In this document: positions 142 through 59,459 of the stretch, one piece after another
Numbering within the stretch: position 1 is the first letter of the stretch
How the letters are laid out: each line of letters opens with the position of its first letter
DNA from: an uncultured Methanosarcinales archaeon
GTDB taxonomy: Archaea; Nanobdellota; Nanobdellia; Woesearchaeales; GW2011-AR4
DNA: 60,871 nucleotides
Assembly: GCA_964611745.1 (NCBI GenBank)
Contig: CAZTBE010000002.1
Location: forward strand, 1 to 60,871
Direction: 5' to 3'
The notes under the pieces: model-generated
What the model saw: only the letters and a program-made list of their open reading frames with translations
Told to the model about the DNA's origin: nothing
Database searches by the model: none
Translations under genes and position numbers: made by a program

Positions 142-438
142 TTGGCCAAAATAATAAACAAAAGATTTAAAATAGTTATGGAATATGCGCATATAAATAA
201 GGTGACAAAAATTAAAAAACAATTTAGAATGATATTTGCTTCTTTCTTTGTATTAACTGTATTAGGTGAAGGAGTATTAGCCTACTTAGATCCAGGAACT
301 GGTTCGGCAATTGGAGGGGCTTTATGGCCTTTAATAATAGCTTTTTTCTCGGCTATATTCGCATTTATAGTTAAATATTTTTGGAATCCAATAAAAAAAG
401 TTTTTTCTAAGCTGAATGGCTTTGCAAAATCTAAGTGA
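142..438 (+). CDS. small membrane protein with Y-L-D-P-G-T-G-S motif
   Basis: 98-aa ORF with TTG at 142 and in-frame ATGs at 178 and 229. Hydrophobic stretches FASFFVLTVLG and LWPLIIAFFSAIFAFIV. Ends 7 nt before the next ORF. No family recognised. Confidence 0.5.
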   Translation: MAKIINKRFKIVMEYAHINKVTKIKKQFRMIFASFFVLTVLGEGVLAYLDPGTGSAIGGALWPLIIAFFSAIFAFIVKYFWNPIKKVFSKLNGFAKSK

Positions 439-445
439 ATAACAT

Positions 446-2215
446 ATGAAAAATAAAGTCCTAATTATTGGAATAGATGCTATGGATTCCAGAATAGTCG
501 ATGAACTAGAACTTCCAAATCTAAAAAGCCTAGAAACATACACCAAATTACAAACTACAATTCCACCTGAGACTCCAGTAGCATGGAGTGCGGCATCTAC
601 TGGAACAAATCCGGGAAAATATGGGATTTTTGATTTCATTAATCGAGATCTGCAAACATATATGCCAAGATTGAACTTAGCAATCGAAAAAAGAGGTATT
701 GTTAAGACAGAATTTTTTTCGCTTATGAAAGGTATACCTTTTTGGAGAATATTAAGTGAAAATAACATTCCCTCTACTATAATAAGATGGCCAGTTACAT
801 TTCCCCCGGAAAAGATAAATGGCAAAATGCTCTCAGGCCTAGGCACTGTCGATATAAAAGGTATGTTAAACAAATATTCTTTCTATACTGATGGTAATTT
901 TAATGGAGATGAAGAGAGCACTGGAAATATAATACCCATAGAAATACAAAATAATGTAATAGAGACATATATTTCTGGCCCTTTGATAAATAAGGGTGGT
1001 GAGCTTAAAGATGTAAAGAAACTTATTTCTATAATACTTAAAGAGGATAAATTAATTATAAAAATCGATAATAAAGATTATGAAATAGGATTAAAATGTT
1101 GGAGCGAGATGATCAAAACCAAATTCAAAGTATATTTTATGAGTGTATATGGCATATTTAAAATATACCTTGAATCTATAAAACCAACTTTCAAGATGTA
1201 TATGACTTCTGTACAGATAGATCCTGAAAACCAAATTTATGATATAACTTATCCTAAAGACTATGGCAAAGAACTTGAAGATAATATAGGATTATTTCAT
1301 ACATTAGGTATGCCCGAGGATACTAAAGCTGTTACTGAAAATAAAATTAGCGAGTCTGTTTTTATAGAACAAGTTAAGCAAATAGAAGAAGAGAGGAAAA
1401 AAATGTTCATATATGAATTCAAGAGATTTAATGAAGGTGCTTTAGCTTGCGTGTTTGATGCTGGCGATAGGCTTAAACATATATTTTGGAACAATAGATT
1501 AGATGATGATAGAGATGTAATAAAAAACTTATCGAAAGAGATAAAAGATTATTATGCTGAAAAAGACAAATTTATTGGGAACGTTATTTCTCAACTAGAT
1601 AAAAATACAAAATTCATAATATTTTCTGATCATGGTTTTAGTACATTCAAAAGGCAAGTAAATATCAATTCGTGGCTAGTAAAAGAAGGTTTTATGAAAT
1701 CTGATGGCAAGGGCATATTATTTGAATCTGTTGATTGGAATAGCACACAAGCATATTCTCTAGGTTTTACAAGTATATATTTGAATCTAAAAGGAAGAGA
1801 AAGAAAGGGTATTGTAAATTATGGAGAAAAAAATGATATAATAAACGAAATAATAAGGAAACTTAAAAATATTAAGGATGGAAGCAAAACAGTTCTTACT
1901 AATATATATAAAGGAAGTGAAATTTACCATGGTAAATATATAGATTTAGCTCCCGATATCGTTTTAGGATTTTCACCAGGTTACAGAATGTCTTGGAAGA
2001 ATGCAAGTGGAGGCATAGAAGACGAAATAATTTATGATAACACAGAAAAATGGAGAGGCGATCACTTAATAGATAGAACTCATGTTCCTGGTGTTTTATT
2101 CACAAACTTTAAAATAAAGAGAGATAATCCCGCTATACTTGACATTGCACCTACAGTACTTAAACTTTTAGATGTTAAAATTCCTGACTATATTGATGGA
2201 GATGTGTTAATATGA
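446..2215 (+). CDS. alkaline-phosphatase-superfamily enzyme, type I phosphodiesterase/nucleotide pyrophosphatase-like
   Basis: 589 aa. Motifs: LIIGIDAMD near the N-terminus, PPETPVAWSAASTG (Thr nucleophile context), FSDHGF and RGDH. Its stop overlaps the cysD start (ATGA at 2212-2215). Confidence 0.8.
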   Translation: MKNKVLIIGIDAMDSRIVDELELPNLKSLETYTKLQTTIPPETPVAWSAASTGTNPGKYGIFDFINRDLQTYMPRLNLAIEKRGIVKTEFFSLMKGIPFWRILSENNIPSTIIRWPVTFPPEKINGKMLSGLGTVDIKGMLNKYSFYTDGNFNGDEESTGNIIPIEIQNNVIETYISGPLINKGGELKDVKKLISIILKEDKLIIKIDNKDYEIGLKCWSEMIKTKFKVYFMSVYGIFKIYLESIKPTFKMYMTSVQIDPENQIYDITYPKDYGKELEDNIGLFHTLGMPEDTKAVTENKISESVFIEQVKQIEEERKKMFIYEFKRFNEGALACVFDAGDRLKHIFWNNRLDDDRDVIKNLSKEIKDYYAEKDKFIGNVISQLDKNTKFIIFSDHGFSTFKRQVNINSWLVKEGFMKSDGKGILFESVDWNSTQAYSLGFTSIYLNLKGRERKGIVNYGEKNDIINEIIRKLKNIKDGSKTVLTNIYKGSEIYHGKYIDLAPDIVLGFSPGYRMSWKNASGGIEDEIIYDNTEKWRGDHLIDRTHVPGVLFTNFKIKRDNPAILDIAPTVLKLLDVKIPDYIDGDVLI

Positions 2216-3015
2216 ATCATTTGGATGAATTAGAAAATAATAGCATCTATATCATCAGAGAGGCATATAAGCAATTTAAAAATATAGGTGTACTGTGGAG
2301 TATTGGAAAAGACTCTACTACATTAGTATGGCTTTGCAGAAAAGCTTTTTTTGGAAAGGTTCCATTCCCAGCAATCCATATAGATACAACTTATAAATTT
2401 CCAGAGATGTATAAATTTAGAGACTTTTTTGCAAAAGAATGGGAACTTAAATTGATGGTTGAAAAAAATCAAGAAGCTATTGATAAAGGAATAGGCTACG
2501 GAACTCACGATGCCTTTACTTGCTGCCATGAATTAAAAACAGTCGCTCTACAAAAATCGATTAAAAAACACAGCTTCAAGGCACTTCTTGTAGGAATAAG
2601 AAGAGACGAACATGGAATTCGTGCAAAAGAACGCTATTTCTCTCCAAGAGATATACAATTTAGGTGGGATTACAAAAACCAACCTGCTGAACTTTGGGAT
2701 CAATATAAAAGTAATGTCAAAGAAGATCAGCATATTAGAGTGCATCCTCTTCTTGGATGGACTGAGCTTGATGTGTGGGAATATATTAGAAGAGAAAATA
2801 TACCAATAAATGAGCTCTATTTCGCAAAAAACAGCAAGAGGTACAGAAGTCTTGGAGACATGCCAATTACTAAGCCTATAGAATCAAATGCAGACACTGT
2901 TGATAAGATAATAGAAGAATTGAAAATAACTAAAATTGCTGAAAGAAGCGGCAGATCTCAAGATAAAGAACAGGCTTATACAATGCAAAAATTAAGAAGT
3001 TTAGGTTATATGTGA
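2212..3015 (+). CDS. cysD: sulfate adenylyltransferase subunit 2 (PAPS-reductase/PP-loop fold)
   Basis: 267 aa with PP-loop motif SIGKDSTTLVWL. Length and order (directly upstream of a CysN-like GTPase) are typical of CysD. Confidence 0.9.
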   Translation: MNHLDELENNSIYIIREAYKQFKNIGVLWSIGKDSTTLVWLCRKAFFGKVPFPAIHIDTTYKFPEMYKFRDFFAKEWELKLMVEKNQEAIDKGIGYGTHDAFTCCHELKTVALQKSIKKHSFKALLVGIRRDEHGIRAKERYFSPRDIQFRWDYKNQPAELWDQYKSNVKEDQHIRVHPLLGWTELDVWEYIRRENIPINELYFAKNSKRYRSLGDMPITKPIESNADTVDKIIEELKITKIAERSGRSQDKEQAYTMQKLRSLGYM

Positions 3016-3018
3016 CAA

Positions 3019-4263
3019 ATGGAAAAAGAATGCATGAACATAGTAATCGTAGGCCACGTTGACCATGGTAAAAGTACGTTGATAGGCAGATTATTATACG
3101 ATACAAATTCGATTCCAGAAGGAATATTTGAGGAAGTTAAAAAAGTTTCTGAAGAATTAGGGAAAGAAACAGAATTTGCATATCTCCTTGATTCACTAGA
3201 GGAAGAAAGAAAGCTAAATATAACAATAGATACTACACAAATATTTTTCAAGAGCCCTAAAAAAGATTATGTAATAATAGATGCTCCAGGACATAAAGAA
3301 TTTCTAAAAAACATGATAACTGGGGCTTCATTAGCTAATGCTGCTATATTGATTATAGATTCAAATGACGGTATTCAGGAGCAGACTAAAAGACACGCTT
3401 ATATTTTAAGTATGCTTGGATTAAGACAAGTAATAGTTGTTGTTAATAAAATGGATATTACAGGTTATAATAGTGTCAAATTCAATAAAATAAAAGAAGA
3501 TATTTTAAAATTTCTTAGTAAATTAAACATAAGACCAAAATATATTATTCCTATTTCTGCTATAAAAGGAGACAATATTATTAAGAAATCTAAAAATATG
3601 CCTTGGTACAATAATTTAAGTGTATTGGAAGCTTTAGACAATTTAAATGCAAAACAAACTTTGTCAAATCAACCATTAAGGTTCCCTGTGCAGGACGTTT
3701 ATGAAATAAATAATAAAAGAATTTTAGTAGGAAAAATAGAATCAGGAAGATTAAAACAGCATGATGAGATTATCTTTCTTCCTTCAAATAAAAAATCTGA
3801 AATAAAATCAATAGAGGTTTGGAATAAAAATAAAACACATGCCGAATCTGGAGAATGTGTTGGAGTAACATTAAAAGAACCTTTGTGTATTGAGAGGGGG
3901 GAAGTGATCTGTTCAGAAGTTTCTCCAAGGATAACAAATAAATTTGAAGCAAATATTTTTTGGATGTCAAAAAACCCAACAAAAATTAATGAGAAATTAA
4001 TCTTGAAATGTGCAACCCAGGAAGTGAAATATATAATAGAGAAAATTAAGAAGAAAATCAATTCTTCTACTTTAGAGGGCATAGATGAGGACTGTGATGA
4101 ATTGAAAGAGACAGAAGTGGGGAATGTAATAATAAAGACTGAAAAACCAATTGTTATAGAAAATTTTAATTATATAGAGGGGTTAGGTAGATTTGTTCTT
4201 GTCAAAAATGACATTATTGTTTCAGGAGGAATTATACCTAATGAGGTTCTTAGATCATATTAA
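3019..4263 (+). CDS. cysN: sulfate adenylyltransferase subunit 1 (GTPase), no fused APS-kinase domain
   Basis: 414 aa. G1 [16 protein letters not shown]3 DAPGH, G4 NKMD. Too short to carry the C-terminal CysC domain. Confidence 0.9.
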
Positions 4264-6115
4264 ATTAGCAGGCTTTACTGGACTAACAGTAGGAATGCTG
4301 TTTGGGGTAATAGATTCTATGGTCAGAGTTATGGCCTGGAGTTTTGAATGGTTTGAATTATATCAAACATTACTGGTATCGGCTGTATTAGCCACTCTAG
4401 GATTTGTCATAGTGGGTATTTTTATAGAACTATTCGGAAAAGCTTTAAGGTTAAACTTTACGAAAAAAAACTTACTTGTTTTTTATGTTGTAAGTTCTAT
4501 ATTGGTTATGCTGCTTGTTTATGGAGAAATTTTTATCAATTTTAAATTGTTTGATGCTTTCACTAGATCCTATCAGCCAAGAATTGTAGTAAGCTTACTA
4601 TTCCCCTTAATCGTTGGTTTGATTTATATTGCATTATTAACCAAAGGAAAGGAGATTGTATTGTATATAGTGAATTACACTCAAAGAAAAAAATTAAAAG
4701 TGTTAGCTAAAAATTTTATTTTTGTAGTACTTATTTTTATCATAACTAGCTTTCTAGTGGATATATACTTCTTGAATTCTATACAAAATTATTCATATAA
4801 TAAAGAAACAAATGAAGTCCCAAATGTAGTCTTCATAACACTAGATACTGTAAGGGCAGATCACCTTTCTCTTTATGGCTACTATTTGAATACCAGCCCC
4901 AATATAGATAATCTTGCTAAAGATTCTGTTGTATTTGATAATGCTGTGTCTCCTTCACCATGGACGCTTCCAAGCCATGCATCATTTTTTTCAGGAAAAT
5001 ATTTGTTCAACCATAATGCTACAATAGCAAATCAGCATCTTGATAACACTGAAACAACTTTGGCGGAAATTTTAAGGGCAAAAGGTTATAATACTGCTGG
5101 ATTTGTAGGAGGCCCATACACAAAAAAAAAATATGGAATTGGACAGGGCTTTGAAACATATAAGGACAGAATTGATTTTTTTGAATATGTGCAGACCTTT
5201 AATAACTGGGGTATCACCTATATTATTACTGAATTCTTTCCAGGGGTTTATAAAATATTAGGTTCTGATGGTTTTAGATCTTCAGAAGATTTAAACAAAG
5301 ATATTTTTGCATGGCTTGATAAAAACAGCAAACAATCTTTTTTCATGTTTATAAATTATTTTGATGCTCATGATCCTTATAACTTAGGGAGCGAATTTAG
5401 AGACCAATTTGTAAATGAAACAAAAAAGTATCCAGATATTGATTTATGGAACTTTGAACGATATAAAAGTATTTCTGAAGACACTATCTACCACTTGAGT
5501 AGACTTTATGATACTGAGATATTCTTTCTTGACTATCATCTTGGAAAGTTTGTCAACAAGCTTGATGAATTAGGCATCAAAAATAATACCATTATAATTA
5601 TAACAGCGGACCATGGAGAAGAATTCTATGACCATGGTGGTTTCCTTCATACTCAAACACTTTATGAGGAAGTTATTCATGTCCCTTTGATTATTTATTA
5701 TCCAAAAGAGTTTAAGAGTAAAAGCATACATAACAGAGTAGAAGCAATGGCCATTTTTCCTACTATTTTGGATATCCTTGATGTAGAGATTCCCAGAGAT
5801 ATTGATGCAACTAGTCTTTTGCCGCTTATAAATAATGAACAGGGCTATAATAAGAAATATGCCTTCTCTGAATTATTCAGTAAACCAAGACGGAGTGATC
5901 AACCGATATCGGCAAATTTACAGTTTAAATCAATTTCCGATGATAACTGGAAAATTATAGAAGCAGAACCGAATATAGAGATTTTACCCCCTTCCCTTTT
6001 TAATTTAAAAACTGATCCAAGAGAACAAAAGAATTTTTATGATGTCTACCCTAATAAAAGAAAAGAGTTGCAGAAATTAATAGCCTCTTTAACAGAGGAC
6101 GACGAACAAAAGTAA
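4241..6115 (+). CDS. membrane-anchored sulfatase-fold (AP superfamily) protein with Thr/His in place of the Cys/Arg of the formylglycine motif
   Basis: The ORF opens at TTG 4193. ATG 4241 is preceded by AGGAGG (4223-4228). Several N-terminal TM helices are followed by [28 protein letters not shown] and [14 protein letters not shown]. Confidence 0.8.
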
Positions 6116-6299: not shown

Positions 6300-7502
6300 A
6301 TGGAAGATAATGTAGATGGTAAGTTTGATGTTGCCATAGTTGGAGGTTTAGGACATGTTGGGCTTCCATTGGGCATTGTTTTTGCAGATAAAGGGTTAAA
6401 TGTGTGTTTATGCGATATTGATAAGAAAAATGCACAACTTGTTGAAAAAGGAGTTATGCCCTTTATAGAATATGGTGCTGAACCCCTACTTAAAAAAGCA
6501 CTTGCAGATGGAAAACTAACGGTTTCCCTTGACAATGAAAGCGTTTCAAAAGCAAAATATGTTGTCATTGCTATTGGAACTCCCGTGGATGAATATTTGA
6601 ACCCTAAGACAAGACAATTTCTTGAATTTTTTATTAGTCTTAAGAAGCATCTCCATGAAGACCAGATAATCATCATCCGCAGTACAGTATATCCTCATAC
6701 ATGCCAGCAAATCGTAAATTTATTGGGTGATGGAGATTGGCATATTGCCTATTGTCCTGAGCGTATTGTGCAAGGCTATGCAGTAAAAGAATTAAAAGAA
6801 CTGCCCCAAATTGTTGCAGGCTTGAGTGAGAAAGCAATAGAAGAATCTTCTAAACTGTTCAATAAGATTTCTCCTAAGATTGTAAGAACTCCAATAGGGG
6901 AAGCAGAGATGATAAAGCTTTTTTCCAATGCATGGAGATACATCCAATTTGCTGTTGCAAACCAGTTCTATATGATTTCGCATAACTTTGGAGTTGATTA
7001 TGATAAAATTAGGTCTGCTATGAGGGAAGGATATGAAAGAGCGCATTCTTTACCTGGTGCTGGTTTCGCTGCAGGTCCATGTTTGCTTAAAGATACAATG
7101 CAATTGTCTGCTTTTAACAGCAATAACTTCCTGTTGGGCCATGCTGCAATGATGATAAATGAAGGGCTACCAAATTTCCTTGTAGAAAACTTAAGGAAAA
7201 AACACGATTTAAGTAAAAAAAAAGTGGGCATTTTAGGCATGGCATTTAAGTCGGATATAGATGATGTCAGAGATTCCCTTTCCTTTAAGCTTGGCAAAAT
7301 ACTGAGGTTCCACGGAGCTAAAGTTTACTATTCAGATGAGTATGCAAAAAACCAAGATTTTGTATCTAAAGAAGAATTAATAAAATCAAGTGATATTGTC
7401 ATTGTAGCAGTACCGCATTCTGCATATAAAAATTTGATTATACCTAAAAATATTGAAGTTGTCGATCTTTGGAATGTAACTGAGAAAAAACAACATAATT
7501 GA
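6300..7502 (+). CDS. nucleotide-sugar 6-dehydrogenase (UDP-glucose/GDP-mannose dehydrogenase family)
   Basis: 400 aa. Rossmann motif VAIVGGLGHVGLPLG, catalytic Cys context AAGPCLLKD, C-terminal UDP-binding-type domain (GMAFKSDIDDVRDS). GGGGT ribosome-binding site upstream. Confidence 0.85.
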   Translation: MEDNVDGKFDVAIVGGLGHVGLPLGIVFADKGLNVCLCDIDKKNAQLVEKGVMPFIEYGAEPLLKKALADGKLTVSLDNESVSKAKYVVIAIGTPVDEYLNPKTRQFLEFFISLKKHLHEDQIIIIRSTVYPHTCQQIVNLLGDGDWHIAYCPERIVQGYAVKELKELPQIVAGLSEKAIEESSKLFNKISPKIVRTPIGEAEMIKLFSNAWRYIQFAVANQFYMISHNFGVDYDKIRSAMREGYERAHSLPGAGFAAGPCLLKDTMQLSAFNSNNFLLGHAAMMINEGLPNFLVENLRKKHDLSKKKVGILGMAFKSDIDDVRDSLSFKLGKILRFHGAKVYYSDEYAKNQDFVSKEELIKSSDIVIVAVPHSAYKNLIIPKNIEVVDLWNVTEKKQHN

Positions 7503-11345: not shown

Positions 11346-12989
11346 TTAGTTAAGCATTACTTCATAAATATAAATATGGTCTTTTATTTCTGTTGTGGGA
11401 TATGTTTCTTCTATTATTGTTAATAATTTAAATTGTTCTGGATGGTCCCTTATATATTTAATGGCACCATAATTAAGAGTTCCTTCTTTATCCCCTTCTG
11501 AAAATGGCCTGTGATATTGCTCCCCATAAACCATGTAACTTACATCATATATGTCAATTAAGGAAAAATAATCTGCATTTACAGGCAATGCCATGATTCT
11601 TTTATCACTCTGATAGTCCAGTTCTATAACATAACCCATTTGAATCATAACACCATCTTTTGGTAATTTATTTATAAACTGGGCTGTTATTGGTATCTCA
11701 ACAATCTTTTCCTTTGAGAATATAAAATGATTATTATTAAGATAGTAGAAGGGTAGATACAAAACCAGAATTAAGATAATAGCAATGATACCAACCTTGT
11801 ATATCCTAAATATGTTATAAGTTTTTGCAAATTTAAAGAGTCCATAACTTGTCACTATAAACAAAAAAGGAATAGCAGTAACAGTGAATCTTGGAGATGT
11901 GTATATTTGTGTTAAAGGCAGAAGAAAGAGAAAGAACATTGTTAGGAAAAACAGCATTTCATTATTTTTTATTCCTTTTTTTAATGATAATTTAATTATC
12001 TTATATAAGCTATACATTGTCGCAATACCCAGTATGGGGTAAATAACTAATTGTAGGAAATTATCTGATGTAAGGAACATTGTTATGTTGCTAAATCTCA
12101 ATCCCATTGGCAATGGAGCAACCACCAATTTAAACATATTTGCTACATGATAAAAATAATGCGAAGGGTCAAGACTTAATCCAAATGGAAGAATGGATTC
12201 AACTTCTTTGAAATATTGTGGGCTTAGTAATTGCCTTAACCCCCAATCACCTGTTTTTACAATAGTTCCATTGACAACCGGATAAAATTCGTTAGTCATA
12301 TATGTGTACACCCTTACAAATATCCAAGAAGAATAAGAAAAAATAGCAGCAATTATTGGAATTGTTGCATGAAAAATTTTGGTTTTGTCTCTGAAAAAAA
12401 CATAGGTTATGATAAGACCAGGAATAAGTAATATTGCATGGTCTGTTGTTATGCCCAATAATAGTGCTGGAAGCGACGAGTATATGATATTTCTAGTTTT
12501 TCCTTCCTTTAAGAACCTGATGTAATAATAAATAGATAATAAAGTAAGCATCATTCCAAGAGGCGCTCTTTTTAAATTACCTATTGAAAGATTAATGAAA
12601 ACATTAGATAAGGATAGAAGTATTAAAGTTCCAAAAGCTATATAATAGTTATTACTTACAAGCATAACCAGTTTGTAAATAATGAAAAAGATTATAGCTA
12701 AGGATATTAATGAAACAAGCAGTCCTGCTATATGGTCTTCAAATAAAAAACTTACAAAATAAATGGCGTAAGGATATAATGGAGGATGTTCTATGTAGAG
12801 TTGATTGTTAAAGAGAGTGTTATAAGGAAAACTATCTGCAAGTGCAAGATATCTTGCAGTATCACCTCCTTGTATGAAATAGTATGGACTATCTGAAAAT
12901 ATTCTTAAGAATATAAATACAAAAAAAACTGCAATAAGCAATAGGTGTTCTCTCTTTAGATTAATTCTAGGTGTTTCTCTTATTTTCAT
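11346..12989 (-). CDS. GT-C fold polytopic membrane glycosyltransferase (PMT_2/ArnT-like)
   Basis: 547 aa, more than 10 hydrophobic segments. First-loop GGDTARYLALADSF followed by EHPPLY, then a C-terminal soluble tail. Confidence 0.7.
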   Translation of the reverse strand: MKIRETPRINLKREHLLLIAVFFVFIFLRIFSDSPYYFIQGGDTARYLALADSFPYNTLFNNQLYIEHPPLYPYAIYFVSFLFEDHIAGLLVSLISLAIIFFIIYKLVMLVSNNYYIAFGTLILLSLSNVFINLSIGNLKRAPLGMMLTLLSIYYYIRFLKEGKTRNIIYSSLPALLLGITTDHAILLIPGLIITYVFFRDKTKIFHATIPIIAAIFSYSSWIFVRVYTYMTNEFYPVVNGTIVKTGDWGLRQLLSPQYFKEVESILPFGLSLDPSHYFYHVANMFKLVVAPLPMGLRFSNITMFLTSDNFLQLVIYPILGIATMYSLYKIIKLSLKKGIKNNEMLFFLTMFFLFLLPLTQIYTSPRFTVTAIPFLFIVTSYGLFKFAKTYNIFRIYKVGIIAIILILVLYLPFYYLNNNHFIFSKEKIVEIPITAQFINKLPKDGVMIQMGYVIELDYQSDKRIMALPVNADYFSLIDIYDVSYMVYGEQYHRPFSEGDKEGTLNYGAIKYIRDHPEQFKLLTIIEETYPTTEIKDHIYIYEVMLN

Positions 12990-22936: not shown

Positions 22937-24439
22937 ATGAAGTTCCTATTTGTAATTAAGGATACCTTTGCGATTGAAAGAATCGGCTTGATGACACTAT
23001 CTTCAATTCTAAAGAAAGCAGGGCATGAAACTGATGTTGTCATGACAGAAAAAGAAGATATCTATAAGAGGATGGATGAATATAATCCTGATTTTCTTTG
23101 CTATACTATAACTACTGGAGAGCACCAATACTTCCTTGACTTAAATAGGGAATTAAAAAAGAAATATAAATTTTTAAGTCTTTTTGGTGGCATACATGCT
23201 ACATTTGTTCCAGAGACTATTGAAGAGGAAGGTGTAGACTGTATATGCCGGGGTGAAGGTGATGACGCAATCCTAGAGTATGTTAATGCTATCAGAGACG
23301 GGAAGCCTTATGACAATATCAAAAACTTATGGGTTAAAAGGCCTGATGGGAGCATAGCTAAAAATGAGATGAGAGATTTAATTTCTGATTTGGACAGGAT
23401 ACCTTTTCCGGATAGGGAGATACTTACAAAAAGAGATCCCACATTAAGAAACATTAAGACAAGAGTATTCTTTATGGGAAGAGGTTGCCCGTATAAATGC
23501 ACTTATTGTTTCAATACCGGATACAACAAATTGAGTGAAGGCAAAGGCAATATAGTCAGGATGAGGAGTGTTGATAATGTCATAAAAGAGATTAAAGAAG
23601 TTTATGAAAAAGAAAAAATAGAATGCGCGCATTTTTATGATGATACCTTTACGCTTGCTGGCAAACCCTGGTTAAGAGAATTTGCGAAAAGAATGAAAGA
23701 AGAAATAGGGATACCATTTGTATGCAATGTAAGGCCTAACACGATTGATGAAGAGATGGTGCAAATCCTAAAGAGCGGCGGATGTTATACTGCCTGGATG
23801 GGTGTTGAAACTGCCGATGATGAAGTAAGAAATGGATTATTAAAAAGAGAATTATCAAAAGAGGATATGTTAAATGCCTGCAGATTATTCAGAAAATATA
23901 AAATAAAAACCGTGCCGCAGATTATGCTTGGGCTTCCAACTAAAGACACATTCAAAAAGGATTTAGAGACATTAAGGTTTTGCATAAAGCTAAAACCTAC
24001 TTTTGTATGTTCGTCTATCTTTTATCCTTACCCATCAACAGAGCTTTATGATTATAGCATAAAAAATGGATATTTTGATCCGAATAACTTTACGCTTGAA
24101 AGCAATAAGATATCATCTCCCCTAAATTTTGATGAGAAGACCAAAAAAAAGATAGTGAATCTGCACAAATTATTTGGAGTTACTGTTGCATTTCCATTCT
24201 TATACCCTTTAACCAAGGTTTTAATTAAATTACCTTTTTATAAATTATATTCCTTAATATTTTTTGGGTGGTATGGATTTATGTATCATATTATACTAAG
24301 GCCAAATAAAATGAGTGTTGGTCAATTTAAAGACTTATTTAAAGCGTTTTTATCTCTTTTTGGTTCTTTAAAGGACCTCAATAAAACTGATAACAGGAGT
24401 ATTAAACCAGACAAAAAATCTAAAGTAGCAAGTAACTGA
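22937..24439 (+). CDS. B12-binding-domain radical SAM enzyme
   Basis: N-terminal flavodoxin-like B12-type domain (FLFVIKD...LMTLSSILKKAGHE). CxxxCxxC GRGCPYKCTYC. Hydrophobic C-terminal region. Confidence 0.85.
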   Translation: MKFLFVIKDTFAIERIGLMTLSSILKKAGHETDVVMTEKEDIYKRMDEYNPDFLCYTITTGEHQYFLDLNRELKKKYKFLSLFGGIHATFVPETIEEEGVDCICRGEGDDAILEYVNAIRDGKPYDNIKNLWVKRPDGSIAKNEMRDLISDLDRIPFPDREILTKRDPTLRNIKTRVFFMGRGCPYKCTYCFNTGYNKLSEGKGNIVRMRSVDNVIKEIKEVYEKEKIECAHFYDDTFTLAGKPWLREFAKRMKEEIGIPFVCNVRPNTIDEEMVQILKSGGCYTAWMGVETADDEVRNGLLKRELSKEDMLNACRLFRKYKIKTVPQIMLGLPTKDTFKKDLETLRFCIKLKPTFVCSSIFYPYPSTELYDYSIKNGYFDPNNFTLESNKISSPLNFDEKTKKKIVNLHKLFGVTVAFPFLYPLTKVLIKLPFYKLYSLIFFGWYGFMYHIILRPNKMSVGQFKDLFKAFLSLFGSLKDLNKTDNRSIKPDKKSKVASN

Positions 24440-43702: not shown

Positions 43703-45253
43703 ATGATAGATATAATACTTTTTCAGCCAAAATGCGGTGTTTGGGATATAATGGGTGCACGAGTACCTATTGGATTACTTTCTATAGGTGCTGTTCCTTG
43801 TAATAAAGGCTATAAGGTTGTCCTTATTGATCAGAGAATTGACTTCGATTGGCAAAGTAAAATTAAGAAATATATCAACCAAGGGGCTAAAATTGTATGT
43901 CTAACAACTATGGTTGGTGAACAAATATTGCATATGATGGAAGTATCCAAATTTATCAAATCAATTGATTCAAACATTCTTACTATACTAGGTGGATCGT
44001 GGCCGCAAACTCAGCCAGAAATGTGTATGCAAGACAAAAATATTGATGTAGTTTGTTATGGTGAGGGAGATTATCTACTTACAGAGCTTATGGCTTATTG
44101 TGAAGGCAAGAAAAAAATAAGTGATGTGCTGGGTATTATACACCGCACTAAGGAAGGGACAATAAAAAGAACTGCTCCAAGACAACCAGTTCAAAATCTT
44201 GATGAACTTCCTAAAATTCCCTATCGTCTTGTTAATCTTAGGGATTATACAGCAGTTGGATTTCGTCAAGGAAAACCTTCAATATCTGTTGTTACAAGCA
44301 GAGGTTGCCAGTTTAGGTGTACATTTTGCTCTATGGTCCCATTATATGGTCAATCATGGAGGGGATATTCTGTAGATAGGTTGATGGAAGACATTGCGGA
44401 ATTAGAGTCAAAGTATGGTATAAAAGACTTTTTCTTCAATGATGATTTAATTACTGGAGATTTTAAGCGTTTTACAGAATTTCTTGAAGCTCTTGCAAAA
44501 TCTGGCAGAGACTATAATTGGGGAACTCCAGGTATGCGAGGAGATGCAGTTTTGAGATTAACAAAAGATGAAAAAGCAATGGATAACCTGATAAAATCAG
44601 GATGTAAAAATCTGGATATAGGTGTCGAGTCCGGAAGTCCTAGAATATTAAAGCTTATAAAAAAAGATACAACCGTAGATGTTATTAGAAGAGTTAATCA
44701 GAAAATGAGTAAATATCCAGTTATCATGAAATATAATTTCATGGGAGGATTCCCAACAGAAACTGAAGGAGAATTTTTTGATACAATGAGGCTTAGGAGA
44801 ATATTACAAGAAGAAAATGAGTATGCTATTGCTCCGATTTACTTCTTTACACCGGTTCCAGAGACCCAGATATTTACATTGGCTATAGAGAATGGATTTC
44901 AACCTCCAACAAAATTGCAGGAATGGGCAGATTTTAATTATGATACTTGGTATAAAAAATATCCATCTTGGTTAACAAAAAGAATGATACACTTGATAGA
45001 TAACGCAGTGTTTTTATCATACTTCTCTAATAAAAAAATGAGTTATAAGTATCCCAATCCACTTTTGAATATATTGTTTAAATTATATTATCCCTTGGCA
45101 AAGCTAAGGAATGATAATGATTATTATGGATTCATGTTCGAAAAGTCGTTAGCAGAATTTATTGTAAAGATTGATGGTAAATTTAATTTATTTAATCGCA
45201 TCCAAAAAAAGTTTTTTTTTAAAAAAAGCGAAAGTCTCAATACCTATTCCTGA
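43703..45253 (+). CDS. B12-binding-domain radical SAM enzyme
   Basis: N-terminal B12-type domain (IILFQP...IGLLSIGAV). SRGCQFRCTFC cluster motif. Confidence 0.85.
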   Translation: MIDIILFQPKCGVWDIMGARVPIGLLSIGAVPCNKGYKVVLIDQRIDFDWQSKIKKYINQGAKIVCLTTMVGEQILHMMEVSKFIKSIDSNILTILGGSWPQTQPEMCMQDKNIDVVCYGEGDYLLTELMAYCEGKKKISDVLGIIHRTKEGTIKRTAPRQPVQNLDELPKIPYRLVNLRDYTAVGFRQGKPSISVVTSRGCQFRCTFCSMVPLYGQSWRGYSVDRLMEDIAELESKYGIKDFFFNDDLITGDFKRFTEFLEALAKSGRDYNWGTPGMRGDAVLRLTKDEKAMDNLIKSGCKNLDIGVESGSPRILKLIKKDTTVDVIRRVNQKMSKYPVIMKYNFMGGFPTETEGEFFDTMRLRRILQEENEYAIAPIYFFTPVPETQIFTLAIENGFQPPTKLQEWADFNYDTWYKKYPSWLTKRMIHLIDNAVFLSYFSNKKMSYKYPNPLLNILFKLYYPLAKLRNDNDYYGFMFEKSLAEFIVKIDGKFNLFNRIQKKFFFKKSESLNTYS

Positions 45254-45381: not shown

Positions 45382-46800
45382 ATGGATGAAAAAGGTATAA
45401 GGGTATGTTTAATCAATACACCGGAGTTACTAAGTGTGTATGGTAAAGTTCAGAAGTTTATCCCACCAACAGCACCACCTTTAGGTCTTCTCTATATTGC
45501 AGCGGTATTAGAACGGGAAAGTTTTCCTGTTAGGATTATAGATTCTTATGCAGAACATTATGATGTGTCTACAACAGTAAAAGAAGCACTAAAATTTAAT
45601 CCAGATATAGTTGGCATTACAGCTGTAACTCCAACATTTGGAAATGCCATTATGATTGCCAAAGCTTTGAAGAAGGCAAATCCAGATGTAACAATAGCTA
45701 TGGGAGGTCCCCATATAACACCAACTGGAGCATTGATATTGCAAAATCACAAATGTGTAGATATTTGCGTAAAGCATGAAGGAGAGTATGCTTTCCTAGA
45801 GTTAACTCAAAAAAAACCATTGAAAGATATTTTGGGCATTTTTTACAGAAACGATGCTGGTACTGTGATAACCAACCCTGACCGGCCTTTGTTGGAAAAC
45901 TTGGATGAACTTCCATTTCCTGCTAGGCATCTAATTGATTTATCTAAATACCATCATGTTCTTTATTCTTCTTATGGAGAACCCTTGACAGAAATGACCA
46001 CATCAAGAGGTTGTCCTTACAAATGTAGTTTTTGTGCATCTAAAATCACAAATGGTTCAAGGGTACGTTTCAGAAGTGTTGAAAATGTTATTGAGGAAGT
46101 AGACGAACTAATAAATAATTACGGAATAAAGGTGATTGAATTTAGAGATGATACACTTACATTAAATCCTCCTAGATTTAAGAGATTATGCGAGGAGTTA
46201 AAGAAACGTGATGTAGATTTTATAGGGAATGCGAAGGTGAATATGGTTGCACGTTTTCCTGAAATGGCCCAACAGGCTAAAGATGCAGGCTGTAAACTAT
46301 TCCTGTTTGGGTGTGAATCAGGCGACCAAAAAATTCTTGATTCATTCCTAAAATCACAAACTGTAGAAGACATCAAGCAAGCATTTAAGATTGTAAACCA
46401 TGTAGGATTGGACACCTTGGCTTGCTTTATATTAGGCTCTCCACTGGAAACTAGAGAAACTGCCAGAAAGACTATTGACTTATCAAAAGAAATTAGTCCA
46501 ACCTTTGTAGAGTACTTCCTATTAAATCCGCATCCAGGTACTGAGTCTGAGGAAGAAGCTAAACGTGTCGGTATGATGACAAATGTCAATTGGGAAGAAG
46601 TAAGTGCACCACAATGGTTTAATCCAACTATCCATCACCCTATATTTTCTGAAGAAGAATTAAAATCCATGCTTAGTAGTGCTTATCGTGAATTCTACTT
46701 TAGGCCAGGATATTTTATGAAGCTACTTTTAAAGATGAATTCTTTTAAAAAAATCCAACGCTATACAAACTTAGCCCGAGCTATGATACACATTGTTTAA
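45382..46800 (+). CDS. B12-binding-domain radical SAM enzyme
   Basis: VCLINTP...PLGLLYIAAVL B12-type domain and SRGCPYKCSFC. AGGTGA ribosome-binding site at 45369-45374. Confidence 0.85.
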   Translation: MDEKGIRVCLINTPELLSVYGKVQKFIPPTAPPLGLLYIAAVLERESFPVRIIDSYAEHYDVSTTVKEALKFNPDIVGITAVTPTFGNAIMIAKALKKANPDVTIAMGGPHITPTGALILQNHKCVDICVKHEGEYAFLELTQKKPLKDILGIFYRNDAGTVITNPDRPLLENLDELPFPARHLIDLSKYHHVLYSSYGEPLTEMTTSRGCPYKCSFCASKITNGSRVRFRSVENVIEEVDELINNYGIKVIEFRDDTLTLNPPRFKRLCEELKKRDVDFIGNAKVNMVARFPEMAQQAKDAGCKLFLFGCESGDQKILDSFLKSQTVEDIKQAFKIVNHVGLDTLACFILGSPLETRETARKTIDLSKEISPTFVEYFLLNPHPGTESEEEAKRVGMMTNVNWEEVSAPQWFNPTIHHPIFSEEELKSMLSSAYREFYFRPGYFMKLLLKMNSFKKIQRYTNLARAMIHIV

Positions 46801-58526: not shown

Positions 58527-59459
58527 TTGCATACATTTAAGGATTTTCTGAATAAATGTTATCCTGCTTATCCGAATGAAGTGCATATCAAGGCAGCAAT
58601 GAAATGGCTTAGCCTTGCCCAAAAACAAAACAATGACGGCGGTGTAAGCGCATTGTATTCATTGTTTGAAGGCTGGGCTTCCTCATACGTTGAAACTACG
58701 GGTTATATCATTCCTACGTTTTTTAATTATGCGGAGTTTTCAAAAGAACCTGCTTATAGAAAAGGAGCTATAGAAATGGCAGATTTTGAATTAAGAAATC
58801 AGCTTCAGTCAGGAGCATTTCCTGGCGGCGGAAAAAAAGATATGCCAATAGTGTTTAACACCGGGCAGGTTATTTTTGGGTTGTGCAGAGCATATCAAGA
58901 AACAAAAAAAGAAAAATACAGGAAAGCAGCAGAGAGAGCAGCAGATTGGTTGGTCTCTGTCATGGACAATGACGGCTGCTGGAGAAGACATCTGTACCAA
59001 AATCATGTACATACATACAATACAAGGGCAGCATGGTCTTTGCTATATTTTCATAAAATTAGTAAAAAGAACAAATACAAAATCGCTGCTGAAAAGAACA
59101 TCAAATGGGCTTTGACCCAGCAATTAGAAAACGGCTGGTTTCAGAATAATGGATTTTATCCTGAGCAAGAACCGCTAGTACATACAATAGCATATTCTAT
59201 CAGAGGAATTTTAGAAGCGGGACTTTACTTAAGGAAAAATGAGTATTTGGAAGCAGCAATCAAGGCAGCAACCAAGCTGCTAGACGCTCAAAGAAAGGGT
59301 GGCTCACTTCCAGGAAGCTTCAATGAAAGATGGAAAAGCAGTGTAGCATGGTCTTGTTTAACAGGCAATTCGCAGATGTCAATAATCTGGCAGAAGATAT
59401 ACCTAGAGACCAAAGATAAAAAATTTATAAATGCTGCAAAAAAAGTAATATATACATGA
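58527..59459 (+). CDS. alpha/alpha-toroid (prenyltransferase/squalene-cyclase-repeat-like) protein, apparently truncated by a frameshift
   Basis: Repeated DGG/GW motifs (NDGGVSALY, DNDGCWRR, ENGWFQNNG, KGGSLPGSF). TTG start at 58527; the first ATG is 58599. The reading frame appears to continue in the -1 frame to 59632. Confidence 0.6.
   Translation: MHTFKDFLNKCYPAYPNEVHIKAAMKWLSLAQKQNNDGGVSALYSLFEGWASSYVETTGYIIPTFFNYAEFSKEPAYRKGAIEMADFELRNQLQSGAFPGGGKKDMPIVFNTGQVIFGLCRAYQETKKEKYRKAAERAADWLVSVMDNDGCWRRHLYQNHVHTYNTRAAWSLLYFHKISKKNKYKIAAEKNIKWALTQQLENGWFQNNGFYPEQEPLVHTIAYSIRGILEAGLYLRKNEYLEAAIKAATKLLDAQRKGGSLPGSFNERWKSSVAWSCLTGNSQMSIIWQKIYLETKDKKFINAAKKVIYT

Follow-up and report, generated by a model that had tools for sequence, protein, structure and literature searches.

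What does a sulfate-activating CysD-CysN pair do when it is encoded between two enzymes of the alkaline phosphatase (AP) superfamily, with no adenosine 5'-phosphosulfate (APS) kinase or canonical sulfotransferase in view? This question is raised by the start of a 60,871-bp stretch of DNA (approximately 32% GC; assembly GCA_964611745.1, contig CAZTBE010000002.1, positions 1 to 60,871; hereafter the window) from an uncultured archaeon deposited as Methanosarcinales and placed by GTDB in the Woesearchaeales. The window begins with five tightly coupled open reading frames (ORFs) on the same strand, at 178-6115. With moderate confidence, we propose that they form a self-contained module for the sulfation of cell-surface glycans, in which a dedicated ATP sulfurylase works with AP-superfamily sulfuryl transferases and not with an APS kinase and sulfotransferases dependent on 3'-phosphoadenosine 5'-phosphosulfate (PAPS). 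The five genes are as follows:

142/178-438, + strand: small membrane protein (sTM), 98 amino acids (aa) from TTG 142 or 86 aa from ATG 178 (the gene callers' version)
446-2215, + strand: nucleotide pyrophosphatase/phosphodiesterase (NPP)-like enzyme, 589 aa; PF01663, 102 bits against a cutoff of 23 (5e-29)
2212-3015, + strand: CysD, 267 aa; NF003587, 365 bits against a cutoff of 195
3019-4263, + strand: CysN, 414 aa; TIGR02034, 346.6 bits against a cutoff of 336.1
4193/4241-6115, + strand: sulfatase-fold protein (SulfTM), 640 or 624 aa; PF00884, 175 bits (2e-51), plus SGSH_C

The junctions between these genes were read from the sequence. The sTM and NPP-like genes are separated by a gap of 7 nucleotides (nt) at 439-445, the NPP-like gene and cysD share an ATGA overlap (2212-2215), and cysD and cysN are 3 nt apart (3016-3018). 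The SulfTM ATG at 4241 lies inside the end of cysN (a 23-nt overlap) and is preceded, 11 nt upstream, by a Shine-Dalgarno-like GGAGG. AT-rich spacers of approximately 177 nt upstream and 185 nt downstream delimit the group. The CysD sequence is present on 21 contigs, and the same operon was found on all six of those retrieved; one of these, L001 (91 kb), carries glycan island further upstream of the operon. SulfTM is 100% identical to a protein from the metagenome-assembled genome (MAG) of a marine 'Candidatus Woesearchaeota archaeon', a member of the DPANN archaea. The assignment of the five genes to one operon within a glycan island is supported.

The rest of the window is an unbroken glycan-biosynthesis island, as determined by Pfam scans of every window ORF of at least 110 aa. 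Its sugar enzymes include a nucleoside diphosphate (NDP)-sugar dehydrogenase, RmlD-type and epimerase-type enzymes and an ADP-heptose-like set; its transferases comprise approximately ten GT2, GT4, two GT9, six PMT_2/GT-C-like membrane proteins and C-methyltransferases, and an asparagine-synthase homologue is also present. No APS kinase, CysH-type reductase or Sulfotransfer_* domain was found in these scans, and a tblastn search of the window with an APS kinase probe (E. coli CysC, checked as PF01583 at 237 bits) was likewise without a match. tRNA and Rfam scans of the window found no features. The initial annotation of this DNA had described five tightly coupled ORFs in the order listed above, a CysN of only 414 aa without a fused CysC domain, and a window devoid of APS kinase, PAPS reductase and Sulfotransfer proteins: the first of these claims was verified directly from the ORFs and junctions, the second is confirmed by the domain scan described below, and the third agrees with the Pfam scans and, for APS kinase, with the tblastn probe.

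Judged by their sequences, CysD and CysN look functional: together they have all of the hallmarks of a GTP-driven sulfate adenylyltransferase, so the pair should make APS. CysD aligns with chain A of the CysDN structure 1ZUN at 3e-68 and keeps the PP-loop SIGKDS and the RRDE motifs in this alignment. It is a short form in which one segment of approximately 30 aa is deleted relative to 1ZUN_A, owing to which it falls below the stricter TIGR02039 and NF009214 cutoffs; its N-type ATP pyrophosphatase motifs and its score above the curated NF003587 threshold place it among the CysDN proteins. CysN, encoded next to cysD, is an EF-Tu/EF-1alpha-like GTPase with a GTP_EFTU domain and two beta-barrel domains (D2 and eEF1A_C), and its translation shows the GTPase motifs G1, G3 (DAPGH) and G4 (NKMD). 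Against an EF-1alpha model its score is 375 bits, under the cutoff of 502 for that model. A Pfam and NCBIfam scan of CysN found no PF01583 (APS-kinase, CysC) domain. As is generally known, NodPQ and the mycobacterial CysDNC proteins are likewise CysD/CysN paralogues encoded in glycoconjugate loci, where they feed sulfation rather than cysteine synthesis. NodQ and the mycobacterial CysN have a fused APS kinase, however, whereas the window CysN has none, and the acceptors in those systems are sulfated by the PAPS-dependent NodH and Stf, in whose place the window has AP-fold enzymes.

The evidence that these genes belong together comes from their linkage in other genomes. A metagenome scan with the NPP-like protein gave 80 loci (35-67% identity), in which partners were counted within 6 kb of the NPP-like gene; a full-flank subset consists of 31 independent loci with at least 4 kb on both sides. 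CysD is found within this distance at 42 of the 80 loci (16/31 full-flank loci), a sulfatase-fold gene at 36 (20/31) and CysN at 20 (9/31). When CysD or a sulfatase-fold gene is counted at any distance in the locus, 25 of the 31 full-flank loci have one. By our estimate, CysD would be expected in such proximity by chance at approximately 1% of loci, for a single-copy gene in a genome of approximately 1 Mb, versus the 16/31 observed. CysD is nearly always on the same strand as the NPP-like gene, often 0-30 nt downstream. The four genes (NPP-like, sulfatase-fold, cysD and cysN) occur together in varying order at L092, L094, L097, L098, L102, L144, L145, L152 and L156 (for example, CysD-CysN-Sulf-NPP or Sulf-NPP-CysD-CysN), and the GC content of module loci ranges from 21 to 70%. 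The shuffled order and the range of GC contents argue for selection on co-location rather than inherited synteny. The possibility that the genes were brought together by chance in a large glycan island is refuted by these comparative data.

A search from the CysD side agrees with this linkage: PF01663 and PF00884 neighbours again stand among glycosyltransferases and Wzm/Wzt exporters, both in Micrarchaeota and in bacteria (Gracilibacteria, Patescibacteria and a deltaproteobacterial MAG); at one Peregrinibacteria locus, CysDN adjoins Wzt only. The SulfTM-side search gave a mixed picture. It recovered a 49% identical homologue in the order sTM, NPP-like, CysD, SulfTM, without CysN (L089/L090), and two 41% identical Woesearchaeota homologues that are preceded by a small transmembrane (TM) gene only. 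A scan of GTDB genomes with the sulfatase-fold alignment was dominated by the generic motif T-I-I-I-T-A-DHG and found only two true Woesearchaeota orthologues. Conservation of the linkage in relatives, which the initial annotation had made a test of its proposal, is strong across DPANN archaea, the candidate phyla radiation (CPR) and other bacteria, although the closest homologues of SulfTM stand alone as far as their contigs extend. The conserved core of the module is the NPP-like enzyme and CysD.

Homologues of CysD with 70-84% identity to the window protein come from Altiarchaeales and from Woese-, Nano- and Micrarchaeota, and among bacteria from several phyla of the CPR and a small number of other MAGs. 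The CysD of one DPANN lineage carries an in-frame LAGLIDADG intein (PF14528 and PF14890) within a 676-aa frame (L108:5981-8011 and L110:12093-14123); inteins commonly occupy conserved, functionally important sites. A second flavour of CysD, approximately 280 aa in length and 49-57% identical to the window protein, is also found in the module, with no CysN in view. It is present at the following loci, as well as at L089, L101, L104, L125, L131, L132 and L139, and both flavours are present in L133:

L127:12253-13257: CysD of the second flavour, approximately 280 aa
L128:13112-13942: CysD of the second flavour, approximately 280 aa
L133:5569-6444: CysD of the second flavour, approximately 280 aa

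The NPP-like enzyme is most similar in structure to ENPPs and to the NPP of Xanthomonas (Xac). Its AlphaFold model (predicted local distance difference test [pLDDT] score of 91) has Xac NPP and ENPP5, ENPP4 and ENPP1 as its best Foldseek matches (E 2e-11, 10-12% identity), and these enzymes share with it the Thr nucleophile and the six Zn-ligand positions. In a profile alignment, Thr43 of the invariant motif PPETPVAW falls on the catalytic Thr of ENPP1, with the T238A mutant chain showing Ala at that position; Thr43 is thus the predicted nucleophile. D11, D341, H345, D395, H396, D539 and H540 are invariant in an alignment of NPP-like proteins (A2), and the equivalents of the six Zn ligands are kept without exception in 21 homologues in A2. 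PF01663, the Thr nucleophile and the six Zn-ligand positions together place the enzyme with the NPP/ENPP proteins. It differs from them in holding a beta-rich insertion of approximately 125 aa, in having Pro in place of the base-stacking Phe, and in its genetic coupling to CysD and to an anchor with a DPGTG motif. NPPs cleave AMP-X anhydrides and have promiscuous sulfatase activity. The family is large, with 1,534 clusters (50% identity) at E<=1e-30, and its members in DPANN archaea are 46-67% identical to the window protein over the best 120 matches.

No TM segment or signal peptide is present in the window NPP-like enzyme, and the sTM protein appears to supply what is missing. sTM has no Pfam or NCBIfam match; it consists of a basic N-terminus, a hydrophobic segment, a conserved Y-L-D-P-G-T-G-S loop, a TM helix and a basic C-terminal tail. 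Many NPP-like homologues of 640-716 aa in alignment A2 begin with Y-I-D-P-G-T-G-G, followed by two TM helices with a basic loop between them, and sTM is homologous to the first part of this fused extension. Because of this homology to an extension fused to NPP-like homologues, sTM is, on the evidence of its sequence, the split-off membrane anchor of the NPP-like enzyme. A separate sTM ORF precedes the NPP-like gene in 34 loci. In two other Woesearchaeota, an sTM gene stands directly before a SulfTM homologue (L007:3574-3789 and L008:9767-9982), and neither locus has an NPP-like gene or cysDN within reach; because sTM adjoins SulfTM there without an NPP-like gene, it may be an anchor that serves both AP-fold enzymes.

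SulfTM begins with a bundle of 5-6 TM helices (residues 3-179), which is followed by an S1-sulfatase-like domain; its structural model (pLDDT of 87) has six long helices over the same residues ahead of the catalytic domain. In both sequence and structure, this domain is best matched by S1 sulfatases and phosphonate monoester hydrolases, with shared metal ligands, and these enzymes account for all of the top 50 Foldseek matches, which include BT1596 and from which LtaS and EptA are absent. In alignments to 5G2V, 4UPI and 3ED4, the Thr of W-T-L-P-S-H sits on the Cys/Ser of the C/S-x-P-x-R motif. The ligands D202, D457 and H458 are invariant in an alignment of SulfTM homologues (A1), in which the nucleophile position is either T or S. 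SulfTM therefore has the fold and the metal ligands of an S1 sulfatase and lacks the formylglycine motif; with C/S-x-P-x-R replaced by T-L-P-S-H, a formylglycine sulfatase is excluded. In 46 scored sulfatase-fold ORFs (43 from module loci and three added from L091, L172 and L174), Thr is found at the formylglycine position in 45, Ser in one and Cys in none. The description of both flanking enzymes in the initial annotation as AP-superfamily proteins with Thr nucleophiles was borne out, as the Thr and all of the metal ligands are kept in each.

Gene pairs with the Fer4_12, Radical_SAM and SPASM domains, the domain set of anaerobic sulfatase-maturating enzymes, adjoin Thr-type sulfatase-fold genes in three lineages (L089:11168-13323, L096 and L128; cluster c28); none is present in the window.

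That a sulfatase-fold protein can act as a glycan sulfotransferase is established. In Halobacterium salinarum, Agl30 (VNG1056C, membrane) and Agl31 (VNG1057C, soluble) are AP-core sulfatase-like proteins that are needed to sulfate the iduronic and glucuronic acids of a dolichol phosphate (DolP)-linked N-glycan, and when expressed in Haloferax they sulfate the Haloferax glycan (mBio 2025; PMC11980604). Their best structural neighbours are BT1596 (for Agl30) and an S1_7 sulfatase (PMC11980604), and the gene for the C5-epimerase Agl32 adjoins theirs (PMC12624080). By the description given in that work, SulfTM shares with these proteins an AP-core, S1-sulfatase-like fold encoded in an archaeal glycosylation cluster; BT1596 is near both Agl30 and the SulfTM model, and a C5-epimerase-like ORF is present in the window as one is beside Agl30/Agl31. 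The systems also differ: a linked CysDN, an NPP-like partner and a small TM protein are all absent from the descriptions in the Agl30/Agl31 papers, and SulfTM has a membrane domain of 5-6 helices versus a single TM segment in the Agl system. The words PAPS, APS, donor, nucleophile and formylglycine are absent from both PMC11980604 and the Agl32 follow-up (PMC12624080). Haloferax Agl7 (HVO_2046), which is needed for DolP-hexose sulfation, was considered as a further relative and dropped, as the main text of its report names no family.

The nature of the acceptor is suggested by two further genes of the window:

6300-7502, + strand: NDP-sugar dehydrogenase, directly after the operon
58527-59459, + strand: C5-epimerase-like ORF, 310 aa; PF06662 (D-glucuronyl C5-epimerase C-terminal domain), 1.9e-10, with matches to several other alpha/alpha-toroid families as well

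Because both are encoded here, and because Agl32 lies beside the sulfotransferases in Halobacterium, a glycan with sulfated uronic or iduronic acid can be envisaged in this organism by analogy.

A second line of evidence, separate from gene linkage, is a C-terminal tail. CysD of the window ends in ...MQKLRSLGYM (2986-3015), and across the loci 127 of 21,145 ORF segments terminate in a tail of the form L-[KRQ]-x-L-G-[YF] with 0-2 further residues, versus approximately one expected by chance (our estimate from residue frequencies). These 127 tails belong to 47 CysD proteins, 60 sulfatase-fold proteins (in 45 loci, distant bacteria included), 14 small proteins encoded next to cysD, three short PF01663 proteins and three unassigned ORFs. 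The window NPP-like and SulfTM proteins do not have the tail. As a sequence signature, the shared tail is independent evidence that otherwise unrelated proteins form one system, and it may be a common docking peptide. CysN would be the obvious candidate for its partner, because the CysN sites that contact CysD resemble the sites of EF-Tu that contact aminoacyl-tRNA (PMC5770160).

Loci with the tail include L100, L101, L102, L125, L165-L167, L172, L174, L021, L035, L065 and many more; many Thr-type sulfatase-fold proteins have it, and the PF01663 proteins that do are few and TM-anchored. Directly before cysD in at least 14 DPANN and CPR loci (and not in the window) is a gene for a protein of 70-88 aa, with an N-terminus that resembles a ribbon-helix-helix (RHH) by eye (no Pfam match), an acidic linker and an LGY tail. 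This protein may regulate the sulfate-activating complex or serve as its adaptor. Examples are:

L109:11880-12092: 70-88-aa protein
L173:9689-9913: 70-88-aa protein
L175:9766-9987: 70-88-aa protein
L094:13521-13766: 70-88-aa protein

When the ORFs of all loci were clustered and most clusters present in at least three loci were run against Pfam (the lineage-specific clusters c7-c9, c11, c12, c14-c17, c20-c23 and c32 lay outside this annotation, and c6 and c34 were unmatched), the annotated clusters were either glycan-related or generic. Apart from the module genes, the recurrent neighbours are GT2, PMT_2, Wzt, methyltransferases and radical-SAM enzymes, and no Sulfotransfer_* family is present among the annotated clusters. 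At least seven loci (L094, L097, L101, L121, L133, L163 and L175) encode a TauE/SafE-type permease, placed either between cysD and cysN or next to them. An ASST-like arylsulfotransferase is encoded beside the CysN-less CysD of approximately 280 aa in L127, L128 and L133; ASST-like arylsulfotransferases are a PAPS-independent family. APS kinase was found in 3 of 171 loci (2.5 Mb searched), of which only L127 is a module with CysD.

Taken together, the comparative evidence from sequences supports a dedicated glycan-sulfation module well, and the module is probably independent of PAPS. The pathway that we propose would begin with the entry of sulfate into the cell, via the TauE-type permease where one is present, and its conversion to APS by CysDN. 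One or both of the AP-fold enzymes would then take the sulfuryl group on their Thr, giving a covalent sulfo-enzyme in the double displacement typical of the AP superfamily, and would transfer it to a hydroxyl group on a sugar of a glycan, either lipid-linked or at the surface. This glycan is probably one containing uronic acids, because an NDP-sugar dehydrogenase gene follows the operon and a C5-epimerase-like gene is present in the window. The NPP-like enzyme, which would be tethered to the membrane through sTM, is the best candidate for the APS-consuming step, because its coupling to CysD is the tightest of all partners, often with overlapping start and stop codons; by analogy with Agl30/Agl31 of Halobacterium, SulfTM is the strongest candidate for carrying out the final sulfation of the glycan. 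The initial annotation had suggested that the locus may install or remodel sulfate on surface glycans or lipid-linked sugars by an APS-derived route. A dedicated glycan module is consistent with both the linkage data and the Agl30/Agl31 precedent; that APS is the direct donor, that the NPP-like enzyme consumes it and on which side of the membrane this occurs we only infer. The reverse, energy-conserving reaction (sulfate esters plus AMP to APS, and then to ATP) was rejected on thermodynamic grounds, as a sugar sulfate ester holds far less energy than the phosphosulfate anhydride.

Several observations weigh against this proposal, and the first concern the donor. The NPP residues that hold the nucleotide do not appear to be conserved in the NPP-like enzyme: the nucleotide slot T-F-P-N-H reads T-P-V-A-W here, so that the Phe after the nucleophile is replaced by an invariant Pro (P44, A46 and W47 are all invariant, and the alignment around the Asn is gapped), so that AMP and APS are candidate ligands at best. 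No literature precedent was found for sulfuryl transfer from APS by an AP-fold enzyme. The APS kinase gene of L127 lies 1.8 kb from the NPP-like gene, and a 39-aa APS_kinase remnant is present in the cluster of L173; PAPS may be the real donor in some lineages. In the general form of this alternative, an unlinked APS kinase would convert the product of CysDN, and either the AP-fold enzymes or an unlinked canonical sulfotransferase would use PAPS. cysC is a small gene whose linkage is not required, and the donor is not named in the Agl30/Agl31 paper (PMC11980604). Literature searches for cysC in Woesearchaeota, as for an APS-dependent or AP-superfamily sulfotransferase, returned nothing relevant. 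To our knowledge, the glycan sulfotransferases known so far all use PAPS as their donor. Against this, no kinase is found within the 60.9 kb of the window, the 10 kb read upstream of it on L001 or 78 of the 80 NPP-like loci; the module loci inspected have no CysN-CysC fusion, in contrast to NodQ or mycobacterial CysNC; and DPANN and CPR genomes are minimal, with a module that looks self-contained. We consider a PAPS-fed module unlikely, though it deserves some weight.

Further difficulties arise from membrane topology, which was read by hydropathy and the positive-inside rule (manually, in the case of SulfTM). Among 115 NPP-like homologues, 49 are soluble, 34 have one TM segment and 32 have two or three (28 have two), and CysD linkage is seen in 15/25, 9/29 and 10/17 (at least two TM segments) of these classes, respectively. 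The soluble enzymes include those of the window, Gracilibacteria and Micrarchaeota; in the fused form of L174, the anchor has no second TM segment and leaves the domain inside. Under the positive-inside rule the basic loop is cytoplasmic, so that the TM-anchored NPP-like domains, SulfTM (with basic loops after TM2 and TM4) and most single-TM sulfatase-fold domains are predicted to face outward. Approximately 57% of NPP-like homologues, including CysD-linked ones, would thus be outside together with SulfTM and most of its single-TM homologues, where they would have no direct access to cytosolic APS; only inward-facing enzymes would be served.

These predictions could be accommodated if sulfation took place on the outer face of the membrane, a speculative variant that we hold to be improbable. 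The NPP-like enzyme would move the sulfuryl group from cytosolic APS to a membrane carrier or exported donor, for example polyprenyl-phosphosulfate (the counterpart of APS among lipids) or a small sulfo-donor for which the TauE-type permease would be the exporter, and this donor would be used by the outward-facing, Thr-type sulfatase-fold enzymes, in parallel to the chemistry of Dol-P-sugars with GT-C enzymes and of phosphatidylethanolamine with EptA. The shared tail would in that case act as a docking peptide, through which CysD, the AP-fold enzymes and the small RHH-like protein gather on a single partner, for example the EF-1alpha-like CysN. If true, the carrier of activated sulfate would be of a new class, and no earlier pathway in prokaryotes would have placed sulfation outside the cytoplasm.

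The outward orientation would also suit a scavenging or assimilation unit, in which AP-fold hydrolases free sulfate (or phosphate or nucleotides) from host or environmental organic compounds, a permease imports it and CysDN activates it. Signal or anchor segments and a predicted outward orientation are found in many homologues of both AP-fold enzymes, several loci encode a TauE-type permease, and metagenomic papers favour such a reading (PMC8091004). The nucleophile, however, is Thr instead of formylglycine in 45 of the 46 linked sulfatase-fold ORFs scored, and substitution to Ser in sulfatases traps the sulfo-enzyme without turnover. Genes of the cysH, sir or cysK type are not found in the locus tables inspected, the modules lie inside clusters for glycan biosynthesis and not for nutrient uptake, and the versions in Gracilibacteria and Micrarchaeota are soluble and evidently cytoplasmic. 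On balance, we regard scavenging as very doubtful.

The Thr nucleophile itself bears on a different alternative, since Thr or Ser in a sulfatase fold is classically tied to phosphoryl, not sulfuryl, transfer, as in LtaS and EptA. Both AP-fold enzymes could have lipid-linked glycans as substrates and work on them as phosphodiesterases or as transferases of phospho groups (in the manner of LtaS, EptA, OpgB or PIG-N), unrelated to sulfate chemistry, with CysDN co-located because another, unrecognised enzyme sulfates the same glycan. SulfTM shares with LtaS, EptA (MCR) and OpgB an N-terminal multi-helix membrane domain, a PF00884 domain predicted to be outside and a Thr nucleophile, which is the architecture of phosphoglycerol and phosphoethanolamine transferases. 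Their metal-dependent double displacement is also shared, as a trait of the AP superfamily; LtaS, EptA and OpgB move phosphoglycerol or phosphoethanolamine from membrane lipids. PF01663 includes the glycosylphosphatidylinositol (GPI) phosphoethanolamine transferases. The likeness to LtaS and EptA, which the initial annotation had drawn, stands for the architecture and the Thr but not for the catalytic domain, which is a relative of S1 sulfatases: the EptA, CptA, MCR and YejM models match SulfTM weakly, at 20-38 bits versus cutoffs of 400-1250 (38 bits versus 561 for EptA), and SulfTM is not a member of the LtaS/EptA family by either hidden Markov model or structure. This explanation also fails to account for the finding that across domains of life no glycan gene is as constant a neighbour as CysD, which is often coupled in translation, and for the shared C-terminal tail. 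No other sulfotransferase candidate recurs except the ASST-like genes in three loci, and Agl30/Agl31 show that a sulfatase fold is able to sulfate glycans. We therefore think phospho-group transfer distinctly unlikely.

The last points to be set against the sulfation module concern SulfTM. A 58% identical homologue lies in a glycan island without cysDN or an NPP-like gene in the approximately 2 kb upstream and 10 kb downstream that are covered, and the same is true of a 49% identical homologue (P0013), with 10 kb covered on each side.

Other features of the glycan island are listed here. B12-binding radical-SAM enzymes, which recur in related loci (e.g. L087, L089 and L121), may carry out C-methylation or other unusual sugar tailoring. 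Two ORFs had no Pfam match at E<=0.01 except for one spurious match.

22937-24439, + strand: B12-binding radical-SAM enzyme
43703-45253, + strand: B12-binding radical-SAM enzyme
45382-46800, + strand: B12-binding radical-SAM enzyme
11346-12989, - strand: ORF without a Pfam family, 547 aa, kept in the strain contigs L001 and L002
13186-14337, + strand: ORF without a Pfam family, 383 aa, in the glycan island

Beyond the established role of a sulfatase-fold protein as a glycan sulfotransferase, we found no description in the literature of its genetic coupling with a CysD(N) that lacks a kinase, with a partner of the NPP clade that has a DPGTG membrane anchor or with a TauE permease, nor of the Thr signature, the shared tail or the spread of the module through DPANN and CPR. 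The donor and mechanism of Agl30/Agl31-type enzymes have so far been unaddressed, and the module gives both a testable hypothesis for the donor and a minimal set of genes for reconstitution. A sulfotransferase system independent of PAPS would be useful, as the cost of PAPS limits enzymatic sulfation. Surveys have read the 'sulfate adenylyltransferase' and 'arylsulfatase' genes of DPANN archaea as sulfur catabolism or assimilation (PMC8091004; PMC12153355). If the proposal made here is true, such genes in DPANN and CPR would instead be machinery for surface decoration and not for sulfur cycling, and the surface that they decorate is the interface by which these episymbionts attach to their hosts.

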